DNA of 64,000 nucleotides from Dictyostelium discoideum. Taxonomy: Eukaryota. A program made the translations under genes and the position numbers. Under the pieces are notes generated by a model. That model saw only the letters and a list, made by a program, of their open reading frames with translations, did no database searches and was not told the DNA's origin. The stretch covers positions 3,968,001 through 4,032,000 of the forward strand of contig CM000151.3 in assembly GCA_000004695.1 (NCBI GenBank), written 5' to 3'. Shown here in pieces: positions 41,015 through 44,480 of this stretch (position 1 is its first letter; each line of letters begins with the position of its first letter).

Positions 41015-41423
41015 TTTATTTGTTTAGGTTTAAAAATTTTAATACAATATATATATAAAAAAAAAAAAAAAAAAAACTAATTAAAAAAATAAAAATAAAA
41101 AAATAAATTAAAAAAAAAAAAATTAAAAAAGAGGCGCTAAAAAAAAAAAAAAAAAAAAATTTATATGTATGTTGGGGCAACATACTAATTAAAAATATTA
41201 TTTTCAATTTTTTTTTAAAAAAAAATAAAAATAAAAATAAATAATAAATAATTTATTATTTTCCAGGAAAATTGAAAAAAATAAAATAATATATTTTGAT
41301 AATAATAATAATAAATAAAAATATAAACATTATGTAATTGTTTTTTAAAATTAAATTTGTTTAGATTTTTTCAAAATCTGTGAAATTTATTTTATTTTTA
41401 TTTTATTTTATTTTTTTTTTTTA

Positions 41424-41771
41424 TTACATAAATAAATCATCTTTGGTTTTTTCAACAAGAAATGGTGAAAAATTATACTTTCTTGTTATATATGCCGACA
41501 AATGATTATGTCTCTTTAAATTATATACCACAGGGGTGGATGGGTCTATTACAACATGCTTTATTTTATATGTGTTTCCATTCATTGCTGATAATGTATT
41601 ATGTATCAATTCTTCACCCCCACATATTCTTTTTAGTGAATTTGATGAACATTTATATTTCATTCTTAATTTAATCAATTTTCTCTTAACATGTTCATAT
41701 CCTTCCCAATTTTCAATATACTTTTGTTGATTTATATTTGTTTTTGTCTTTTTAACGCTTGTATGTGGCAT
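41424..41771 (-). CDS. Small hypothetical protein (115 aa ORF). No family recognised. It may be part of a spliced gene.
   Basis: A clean ORF with typical codon usage in a GC-elevated island ('MPHTSVKKTKTNINQQKYIENWEGYEHVKRKLIKLRMKYKCSSNSLKRICGGEELIHNTLSAMNGNTYKIKHVVIDPSTPVVYNLKRHNHLSAY...'). There is no homology I can name. Confidence 0.3.
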   Translation of the reverse strand: MPHTSVKKTKTNINQQKYIENWEGYEHVKRKLIKLRMKYKCSSNSLKRICGGEELIHNTLSAMNGNTYKIKHVVIDPSTPVVYNLKRHNHLSAYITRKYNFSPFLVEKTKDDLFM

Positions 41772-41999
41772 TGTGTTTTTAAATATTTATTTTAATAATT
41801 AAAAAAAAAAAAATTTATATTTTAAAAAAAGAGGGGAAAAAAAAAAAAAAAAATATGTAATATATTATATTTTTATATTTATTTTTTTCAATTATTTGAT
41901 TTAGTTATTTCAATAGTTTTTTTATTTTTATTTTTTTAATATAATGTAACAACATGTTTTTTATTATTTTATTTTATTTTAAAATAAATAAATAAGATT

Positions 42000-42058: not shown

Positions 42059-43285
42059 TTAAAATAATTTTTTAATAAATTTTTTAGCATCTTTACCAAC
42101 TTGTTGAGCAGTACTTGGATTCTTTTTAACATAACCATTAATGATAGAATAACCTTGTGGTGGGTATTTATTATGATAGATACCTAATGGTTTATTTTTC
42201 TTTGCTTTATGATCATTTTTCTTTTGTTTATTTTTTAATTTTTCATTACCTTTCTTTGAGATTGATGGAATGGAAGCTCTCCATCTTTCATAGTCATATT
42301 TATAAGTTGGTGGTACTAATTCTCTACCGAAATTGATTGCAGTAATTGCAATGTTAATCTCACCATGTGGGACAAAACTTAATTGTTCAGTAGTGACAAC
42401 TTCAATACCACGTGGGAAAGTGGAGGGGTCCAAAGCGACGAACCCAATCAAATCGTCGGAACCCACTTTATCATGGTCGTAAACTTCAATGATGACTAAA
42501 TCATTGACGCAATTGCCTAGATCGATATTAAAAGTTTCATTCCAAATTGGGTTCAATGATTTACTAATATGTCTAGTTTTATAATCTTTGCCATTGGTAG
42601 CTGGTGTTTTAATCTTTACATAAGGATCTGAAGTTCCACCAACATCTGCTGCAATTAAATTACGAGCTGATAAAATTTTAATTTGGAATGTTGAGATTGG
42701 TGATGATGTAAATCTTGCACCTGGTGGTAAAGGAATACTTTTATTTGGACTAATTAGTGGTGCATGTTGTTGTTGTGGTAATGGTGGTGGTACTCCAAAT
42801 GCACTTGGTGGTGGTGGTCCAAATGCACTTGGTTGTGGTGGATATCCAACACCTTGTTGTGGTGGGTAAGCACCGTATTGACCTGGTTGTTGGTGGTGTG
42901 GTGGTGGTGCGCCATAATGGCCTGGTTGTTGTTGTTGTGGTGGGTAAGCACCATATTGACCTGGTTGTTGTGGTGGATAGGCACCATATTGACCTGGTTG
43001 TTGTGGGTATCTATTTAAAAAAAAAAAAAAAAATTAAAAATATGAGATTAATAAATTATTAAGGGTGGTAGGATGTAAAAATTTCATCATTAAGGTGTAG
43101 AAGAGTGATTTTAGGCGGCGCTGGTGGGTTTGTGGCCTCTATTTTTTTATTTTCTATGCGACTCCCCCTATTATTTCCATTAATTTTTTTCTTTTGTATT
43201 TTTTTTTTTTTTTTTTTTTTTCCAAAAATGTCTGGGAAAAAAAAAAAATTAAAAAGAAAATAAAAAATATTTACCCGTTACTCAT
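42059..43285 (-). CDS. C2-domain protein with a Pro/Gln/Tyr-rich N-terminal region. It has a micro-exon 1 (about 43275..43285, 'ATGAGTAACGG') plus the main exon about 42059..43010.
   Basis: The main exon is open from the 'AAATAG' acceptor at 43011. It begins with 'YPQQPGQYGAYPPQQPGQYGAYPPQQQQPGHYGAPPPHH...' repeats. The C2 domain follows ('FQIKILSARNLIAADVGGTSDPYVKIKTPATNGKDYKTRHISKSLNPIWNETFNIDLGNCVNDLVIIEVYDHDKVGSDDLIGFVAL'). Exon 1 was inferred from 'ATGAGTAACGG|GTAAAT', which gives an in-phase 'MSNG|YPQQ...' join across a 264-nt intron. Confidence 0.65.
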
Positions 43286-44480
43286 ATTATTTATTTATTT
43301 AATAATAAAAAAAAAAAAGTTGATTTCTATAAAATTTTTTGTTTGAAAATTAATATAAGAAAACAAAAAAAAAAAACTATTTATATTAATTTTTTGTTAG
43401 TGTGAAAAATAAAAAAAAAAAAAAGAAAAAATAAATAATTAAATAAAATAAAATAAAATAAAAAAAATTAAATCCCACATAAAAAAATGGTTTGATTGAT
43501 TTATTATAATGTTAGTGTAAATGCTCCTCAATTGACATTATTTGTCTGAAAGTATTAAATTATTATTTAAAAAATCATTTTTTTTTTTTTTGACATTTTA
43601 TTCGAAAATGTAAAAAAGTGATTAAAAAAAATAAAAAATAAAAAATGAAAATAAAAAAAAAAAAAAAAAATAAAAAATTAAAAACAAAAAAAAAAAAAAA
43701 AAAAACAAAAAAAAACTCTGGTAGGAAAGTCTAATTAAACATCAACACACAACAACAACACTCCGTTATGAACTAAGAATTAATTAAGATAATAGAAAAT
43801 ATCAAAAAAAAAAAAAAAAAAAAATTAAATAAAGTTCTTTTTTTTTTTTTTTTTTTTTTTCACTTAAAAACTATTTTTAATTAACCTTACCACAAGGTTA
43901 AATATTTTATTTTTGTTTTTTTTTTTTAAAACATTTAGAATTTATTATTAATTTTTTTTTTTCCAAAATAATATATATATATTTTTTTTTTTTCTTTTAC
44001 ACAAAGAAATACAAATGATAAATTTTCTTTATATATAAGTATTCAACTAAATAATTTATCCATTGTTTTTAGTTTATATATTATCATATCTTTTTTTAAA
44101 AAATAAATATTAAAAAATGAATTCATCATTAAATTATATATATTTTTTTGAATTGAATTGAATTATATTTATTTTTTAAAATTTTGGAAATAAAAAATAA
44201 TAATAACCTATGAGAACTAATAGAAAAAAAATTTCTAAGAATCTGGTTTATTTTTGATTATTTTTTTTTTTTTTTTTTTTTTTTGGGTATTTTATCCAAG
44301 AGCAATGACACACTATAAAAAATTTTAAAAAAAAAATATTTGAAATTATCCATATCCACCCAATTTATAACACTAAAAAATACTTAAGTATTTTTATTTA
44401 TATTATGATTTACTATAAAAATGTTTTTTGTTTTTTTATTTTTTTATTATTTAATTATATTTTTATTTTTTATTTATTTT

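Follow-up and report, generated by a model that had tools for sequence, protein, structure and literature searches.

A GC-rich island in intron 1 of DDB_G0274273, a C2-domain gene of Dictyostelium discoideum, is probably a young, possibly transposon-derived insertion

Results

Gene model and orthologous loci

The DNA analysed here, a 64-kb stretch from Dictyostelium discoideum AX4 (hereafter, the window), carries on its minus strand the gene DDB_G0274273, which encodes a C2 domain-containing protein. The gene opens with a micro-exon (ATGAGTAACGG, 43285..43275) that codes for MSN and the first two bases of a glycine codon, is interrupted by a first intron (43011..43274, minus strand, GTAAAT...AAATAG), and continues in a second exon (42059..43010, minus strand) encoding an N-terminus rich in P, Q, G and Y, followed by the C2 domain, up to the stop codon. 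In the frame of exon 2, no ATG, GTG or TTG was found upstream of 42556, and translation must therefore start in an exon further upstream. The 320-residue spliced product is identical at every position to XP_643975.1 (DDB_G0274273), and the orthologues from D. cf. discoideum, D. dimigraforme, D. citrinum and D. firmibasis begin with MSNG or MSHG followed by YPP; the micro-exon and the 264-nt intron are therefore correct. The initial annotation had proposed both, the micro-exon at 43275-43285 with some reservation, and its intron length of 264 nt (43011-43274, GT..AG) proved exact. The micro-exon is kept at all eight orthologous loci, and the PF00168 domain was matched in all orthologues.

For comparison, the orthologous locus was taken from eight other assemblies and, together with the window, the nine introns were aligned. 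One of these assemblies is D. discoideum with 99.5% identity to the window (L012) and two are further D. discoideum isolates (L013 and L014; GCA_054859355.1 and GCA_054859385.1). The remaining five loci are from sibling species, namely D. cf. discoideum (L001 and L015), D. dimigraforme (L002), D. citrinum (L003) and D. firmibasis (L004).

Sequences flanking the gene

The stretch 43306..43398 (minus strand) is the putative core promoter and 5'UTR of the C2 gene. It contains TATAAATA (43385..43378) and a T12 run (43376..43365), followed by a leader that is nearly invariant across eight loci and lies upstream of the conserved ATG; we infer the promoter from the TATA box and the T-run. The GC-rich island described below had initially been considered as a possible core promoter or 5'UTR of the C2 gene, a reading that does not hold, as the island lies downstream of the annotated, conserved ATG, with TATAAATA, the T12 run and the leader upstream of it. 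In L013 and L014 this promoter bears a 21-nt C-rich insertion of its own, between the positions matching 43398 and 43390 of the window and within ...AACAAAAACCAACTACCTCCAAT..., and small GC-containing indels are therefore not peculiar to the island.

Three further blocks upstream of the gene (43465-43570, 106 nt; 43585-43604; and 43716-43766) are almost invariant in seven or eight Group 4 loci, although the intergenic DNA around them consists of A/T runs. The first includes an octamer that had been singled out as resembling the DUSE upstream element (ATGTGGGAT on the gene strand), and the second is a 7-bp hairpin, ACATTTT-CGAAT-AAAATGT. Since RNAalifold returned no convincing consensus structure and no favourable z-score for these blocks, they look like cis-regulatory DNA of the C2 gene. 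Outside the conserved blocks, a perfect 8-bp hairpin on the + strand (TTAACCTT-ACCAC-AAGGTTAA, 43877-43897) overlaps a two-mismatch match to the 11-nt motif of Class I RNAs, a motif whose count is at chance. In one of the D. cf. discoideum loci (L001, 4274-6245), about 2 kb unrelated to the AX4 spacer lie between the C2 gene and a Hat1-like gene.

On the other side of the gene lies DDB_G0274271, a minus-strand open reading frame (41424..41771) for a 115-residue hypothetical protein with no Pfam domain, contained in a unit of about 400 bp (41391-41825). L013 and L014 lack the unit at this locus and retain only a 3' remnant of it, and it is likewise missing from all five sibling-species loci (L001, L015 and L002-L004). 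In D. firmibasis, a homologue with 85% DNA identity (L016) lies 3.6 Mb distant on the chromosome that carries this locus, and a D. discoideum isolate has one with 75% identity on a different contig (L017). Judged from this distribution, DDB_G0274271 is a relocated or duplicated small gene.

A GC-rich island within an AT-rich intron

The first intron contains a GC-rich island at the place where the initial annotation had put it, and the strings quoted there are present in the sequence. The figure given for its composition, about 55% GC over roughly 80 nt, was too high: GC content is 41.8% at 43090-43180, 43.2% at 43100-43180 and 50.9% over the 55 nt at 43115-43169, with values of 57-60% restricted to a core of 35 nt. 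The island nevertheless differs sharply from its surroundings, which contain 4-13% GC directly beside it, and it is the sole non-coding case among the 55-nt stretches with at least 51% GC across the 64 kb, all others falling within long ORFs. Five of its six reading frames are broken by stop codons and the sixth, in the sense orientation, is open and has no start codon. The + strand frame that is open across the GC-rich core uses atypical codons, which are rare in Dictyostelium. A protein search with the translations of the two open frames of the island yielded no candidate.

In the 5' half of the same intron, a long T-run, a short CC...GG spacer and a long A-run (43196-43252) could form a U/A hairpin; all orthologous introns preserve this layout but not its sequence.

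The island is part of an inserted block

Alignment of the nine introns, with exact junctions, identifies the island as part of an inserted block at 43055-43169. The inserted segment is 115 nt long when one copy of a flanking direct repeat is included (40% GC), and 109 nt without it (43061-43169); in the orientation of the gene it reads AGGGGGAGTCGC...CATCCTACCACCCTT-AATAAT. It is absent from all five sibling-species loci, in which the insertion site is uninterrupted. The empty site of L001 reads GGAAATAAT|TTATTAA, with close variants in L015 and L003, so that these three loci retain a recognisable, unbroken junction of the form ATGGAAA(T/A)(A/T)AT|T(T)ATTAA. In wider context, the sequence ...ATGGAAATAAT|TTATTAAC... 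of L001 corresponds in the window to ...ATGGAAATAAT, then the insert (AGGGGGAGTCGC...CATCCTACCACCCTTAATAAT), then TTATTAATC.... Copies of a 6-bp direct repeat, AATAAT in gene orientation, flank the insert at 43170..43175 (left copy, ATTATT on the + strand) and 43055-43060 (right copy).

The lengths of the introns follow the same pattern. The intron spans 264 nt in AX4 and L012, whereas the other orthologous introns measure 99-202 nt (184 nt in L013, 202 nt in L014 and 99-142 nt in the five sibling-species loci). The sibling-species introns contain no GC-rich stretch, their overall GC content being 7.7-13.4%, and the AX4 intron with the insert removed has 10.7% GC. The 3' splice site follows the insert at a distance of 44 nt, and both splice sites are intact.

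The insert consists of two halves with different distributions. The left half (segA, 43115..43169, 55 nt, 51% GC), which carries GGCGGCGCTGGTGGGTTTGTGGCC and GCGACTCCCCCT and contains both of the strings quoted in the initial annotation, occurs only in AX4 and the near-identical assembly L012. The right half (segB, 43055..43114, 60 nt, 30% GC) is common to AX4, L012, L013 and L014 and is not found in the sibling species. The 55 nt missing from L013 and L014 begin precisely at the element's left end, and the repeat AATAAT is kept in both copies; segA by itself has no flanking repeat.

This distribution bears directly on the idea that the block is ancestral intron sequence, deleted independently in the other lineages. 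Deletions do occur nearby, as illustrated by the roughly 320 bp lost from L013 and L014 at 41484-41804, where a remnant was kept. An ancestral origin would, however, call for a deletion at each of five loci from at least four species (D. cf. discoideum twice, D. citrinum, D. dimigraforme and D. firmibasis), and it fits poorly both with the uninterrupted junction that L001, L015 and L003 recognisably share and with the lack of any remnant at the sibling-species loci. We consider it exceedingly unlikely. By contrast, a non-functional, lineage-specific insertion in intron 1 of DDB_G0274273 is very likely.

Age of the insertion and rate of change

The insertion can be placed with the coding sequence of the C2 exon. 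Over 666 nt, the p-distances from AX4 are 2.3-2.9% for L013 and L014, 3.75% for L001, 6.5% for L015 and 9-10% for the other three species, and L013 differs from L014 by 1.8%. These distances order the loci as ((AX4,L012),(L013,L014)),L001,..., which places the insertion of segB on the D. discoideum stem, after the L001 split, and means that segA was either gained on the AX4 branch or lost on the L013/L014 branch, at a cost of one event each way. Both the loss of segA in L013/L014 and a second insertion in AX4 need an event at exactly the same junction.

Since its arrival the shared half has changed quickly. Between AX4 and L013 or L014, segB shows 6 substitutions in 58 positions and 7 in 60 (10-12%), as opposed to 1-2 in the 106 nt of the upstream block at 43465-43570 and none in the 51 nt of the block at 43716-43766 (0-2% in these blocks) and to 2.3-2.9% in the C2 coding sequence, making segB the fastest-changing alignable sequence of the neighbourhood in this comparison. 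By this measure, the insert is not under constraint.

The island lacks the hallmarks of a non-coding RNA gene

Because the GC-rich island includes a C-rich octamer that departs from the DUSE consensus at a single position, it resembles at first sight the DUSE-dependent small RNA genes (Class I RNAs and snRNAs), and an intronic non-coding RNA gene had been proposed on that basis. The DUSE, [AT]CCCA[CT]AA, acts from a position upstream of either the transcription start or a TGTG box, at a distance of about 60 nt, and Class I loci are conserved across Dictyostelia together with their DUSE, their RNAs sharing an 11-nt motif (PMC7919456). The likeness of the island to such an element comes down to one 7/8 match (ACCCACCA, 43122-43129, minus strand), and matches of this kind are at or below chance frequency: the window holds 171 with one mismatch, where shuffles give 194 +/- 13, and 4 exact matches, where 9.8 are expected. 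No exact consensus lies in or beside the island, and on the minus strand no AAATGTG or TGTG box follows ACCCACCA at about 60 nt. The second near-DUSE of the initial annotation does exist (TCCCACAT, + strand), at 43473-43480 instead of 43463, and is no better than chance. For the Class I motif, which we take to be CCTTACAGCAA and which goes together with a terminal stem in these RNAs, no match with up to two mismatches falls in the island, and its count in the window is likewise at chance frequency.

RNA models and folding gave a concordant picture. At the gathering threshold, Rfam returned no match in the whole window; at E<=10, the region 42800-43900 contained no credible match, and the island gave only noise (ST7-OT4_3, E=7, over 43092-43196). 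The weak miRNA matches at 43201-43252 (MIR396, E=0.04, well below the gathering score) are spurious, arising from the low-complexity T-run and A-run outside the island. ARAGORN found no tRNA. The predicted minimum free energies were -13.2 kcal/mol for the sense strand (z +0.96) and -28 kcal/mol for the antisense strand (z -0.27), with branched folds in both cases, neither of which exceeds shuffled sequence in stability.

Two other classes of small RNA were considered. Box C/D snoRNAs have box C (RUGAUGA) close to their 5' end, box D (CUGA) close to their 3' end and a terminal stem, whereas miRNA precursors form a stable, extended hairpin and give Dicer-dependent small RNAs. A box C heptamer, AUGAUGA, is present in the sense orientation at 43090..43084, but no CUGA (box D) occurs before the 3' splice site, and the box-C-like heptamer is altered to AUGCUGA in L013 and to AUGGUGA in L014. 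D. discoideum also has two intronic miRNA loci, in DDB_G0293106 and DDB_G0284713 (PMC6161686), which provide a precedent; the island, however, matched none of the miRNA sequences in Table S1 of the same study. Set against the octamer, the box C match and this precedent, the lack of any Rfam or tRNA match, the unremarkable folds, the chance frequency of DUSE-like octamers, the lack of a TGTG box or start site at the DUSE distance (PMC7919456), the missing 11-nt motif and the absence of conservation in Group 4 of an island that evolves rapidly make an intronic RNA gene, whether a DUSE-driven small RNA, a box C/D snoRNA or a miRNA precursor, a reading to which we give hardly any credence.

A G/T-rich motif in the AX4-specific half

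A second functional reading concerns GGTGGGTTTGTGG, a putative intronic site of the G-box/CA-element type for the developmental factor GBF; as a strain-specific cis-regulatory element, it would change how the C2 gene is expressed in the AX4 lineage. Half-sites bound by GBF are G/T-rich and paired, and the island offers one full KGKGKGK half-site (GGTGGGT, 43123-43129) beside a partial one. The intron has no other full half-site, and two more are all that the 1.2 kb of intergenic DNA upstream contains. A single half-site is nevertheless weak, the window containing 50 such heptamers, and the motif lies within segA, which neither the two other D. discoideum isolates nor any sibling species possesses, while the genuinely conserved upstream blocks lie elsewhere. 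We therefore regard a regulatory role for this motif as very improbable.

Structure of the insert ends and search for other copies

The ends of the inserted block may point to a mobile element. In gene orientation the insert starts with AGGGGGAGTCGCATAG and ends with CATCCTACCACCCTT, and the two ends form an imperfect inverted repeat that agrees at 14 of 20 positions with a gap (AGGGGGAGTCGCATAGAAAA versus AGGGTGG-TAGGATGTAAAA). The anchored score of this terminal repeat is 6, against 1.5 +/- 1.6 in composition-preserving shuffles, 2.6% of which reach it; the signal is weak and would be lost on correcting for the alternatives examined. The flanking AATAAT match has a probability of about 0.004 of arising by chance at the composition of the intron, and is compatible with a true duplication length of anything from 3 to 6 bp, although a microhomology left by repair would look alike.

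A search of about 145 kb of Dictyostelium DNA (the window and 11 loci, including L001-L004, L016 and L017) revealed no second copy of the island, BLAST giving T-run matches only. The 20-mer GCGCTGGTGGGTTTGTGGCC was found in 5 metagenome contigs, 2 GTDB genomes and no viral sequence, all of these being non-extending chance matches of 20-25 nt in prokaryotic DNA of 56-68% GC. Plasmid and phage collections, searched in distant mode, held no match to the island, and a full-text literature search with the gene identifier and five 15-mers of the island retrieved nothing. The initial annotation had named an untranscribed, single-copy and unconserved island as the outcome that would speak against its proposals; of these traits, the island is indeed unconserved, being absent from the sibling species, and its single-copy status extends to the roughly 145 kb covered here.

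Known DNA transposons were compared by way of the features described for TDD-4 and TDD-5, which measure 3.8 kb and have inverted repeats of 260-297 bp and 5-bp target duplications (PMC2836005). Neither their duplications nor their repeats fit the insert, and TDD-4 and TDD-5 were rejected as its source; a 6-bp duplication points to no D. discoideum DNA transposon family among those whose described features were compared here (TDD-4 and TDD-5; PMC2836005). Parsing the junctions by eye in the style of piggyBac, PIF/Harbinger and hAT elements gave no solution with both flush ends and the right duplication.

Discussion

The GC-rich island of the first DDB_G0274273 intron is a genuine anomaly of composition that probably has an ordinary explanation, and of the three readings offered initially (an RNA gene, a promoter element and a mobile-element fragment) it is the mobile element that survives. 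The comparative data favour it through the insertion itself, the flanking direct repeat and the empty site, all observed at a single locus. Taken as a whole, the account in which the island is a young insertion of the D. discoideum lineage, neither a gene nor a control element, and arrived in a transposon-like manner appears reasonably likely to us. Within this account, the insert may well be what is left of a small, non-autonomous DNA transposon; as for the vehicle of insertion, we hold a transposon responsible with slightly less than even confidence.

The sequence of events that we envisage is as follows. The insert would have entered the intron either as a small, non-autonomous element of a DNA-transposon-like kind or as what remained of the ends of a larger one, duplicating its target site (AATAAT) on arrival, and its G-rich ends (AGGGGGAGTCGCATAG and the reverse complement AAGGGTGGTAGGATG) would be degenerate terminal inverted repeats. 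The left 55 nt may later have been lost in L013/L014 by a one-sided deletion from the left end of the element, as after an aborted excision, in which a cut at the transposon end would have been followed by one-sided resection and rejoining; alternatively, segA may have been gained secondarily in AX4. At present the insert would be transcribed as part of the pre-mRNA and spliced out, with no function of its own.

Such a history would be in keeping with what is seen for MITEs and other non-autonomous DNA transposons in introns. Like these, the insert is small (109 nt), non-coding, flanked by a short direct repeat and mirrored at its ends; it is present or absent among close relatives, leaves an intact empty site and appears to be harmlessly spliced out. 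Unlike them, it has no second copy in the roughly 145 kb, its inverted repeat is only marginally above chance, and one of its halves occurs alone in another lineage. The duplication length identifies no superfamily, any value from 3 to 6 bp being compatible. The known cut-and-paste elements of D. discoideum are TDD-4 and TDD-5 (Ginger2), DDT and thug, of which TDD-4 and TDD-5 supplied the features for our comparison. Copies of thug-S are dispersed and give rise to miRNAs (PMC4894637, PMC6161686).

The main competitor to a transposon is filler DNA, captured while one or two double-strand breaks in the intron were being repaired. Stray DNA or cDNA would have been copied or ligated in by end joining, either non-homologous or microhomology-mediated; AATAAT would be the microhomology used in repair, and a fragile AT-rich site would have taken up segA and segB on separate occasions. 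Several observations sit comfortably with such an origin: the element is single-copy in the DNA searched, its structure is nested and in two parts, with no repeat flanking segA on its own, its inverted repeat is weak, a 6-bp repeat in AT-rich DNA can result from microhomology-mediated repair, and other small C-rich, lineage-specific insertions lie nearby, such as the 21 nt in the promoter of L013/L014. Together with the lack of a second copy, the empty plasmid, phage, protein and full-text searches and the misfit of TDD-4 and TDD-5 keep this explanation alive. On the other side, the 64 kb offers no local template, with no match of at least 12 nt to the GC-rich parts on either strand, the 6-nt flanking repeat is improbable by chance, and the G-rich and C-rich ends mirror one another. 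On balance, we find filler DNA unlikely, albeit worth keeping in mind, and prefer the transposon-like remnant.

A bolder version of the transposon reading is that the insert is one copy of an undescribed family of miniature DNA transposons, full-length in AX4 and 5'-truncated in the other isolates, which would have been active in D. discoideum after the split from its nearest sibling species. We think this improbable. If true, D. discoideum would have its first reported MITE-like family, and the insert would serve as a useful presence/absence marker for natural isolates. In a weaker variant, the G/T-rich core would provide a strain-specific regulatory input to DDB_G0274273 in the AX4 lineage.

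In itself, the island matters little: it is a clean, datable case of a GC-rich patch arising in an otherwise ~90% AT Dictyostelium intron. The practical lesson is that GC-rich patches of this kind should be checked against sibling genomes before RNA genes are named. A useful by-product of the comparison is that the near-invariant upstream blocks mark what looks like the real control region of the C2-domain gene. Should other copies of the insert exist, they would point to a small DNA element that was mobile until recently in D. discoideum, where few DNA transposons occur and those few are poorly characterised.
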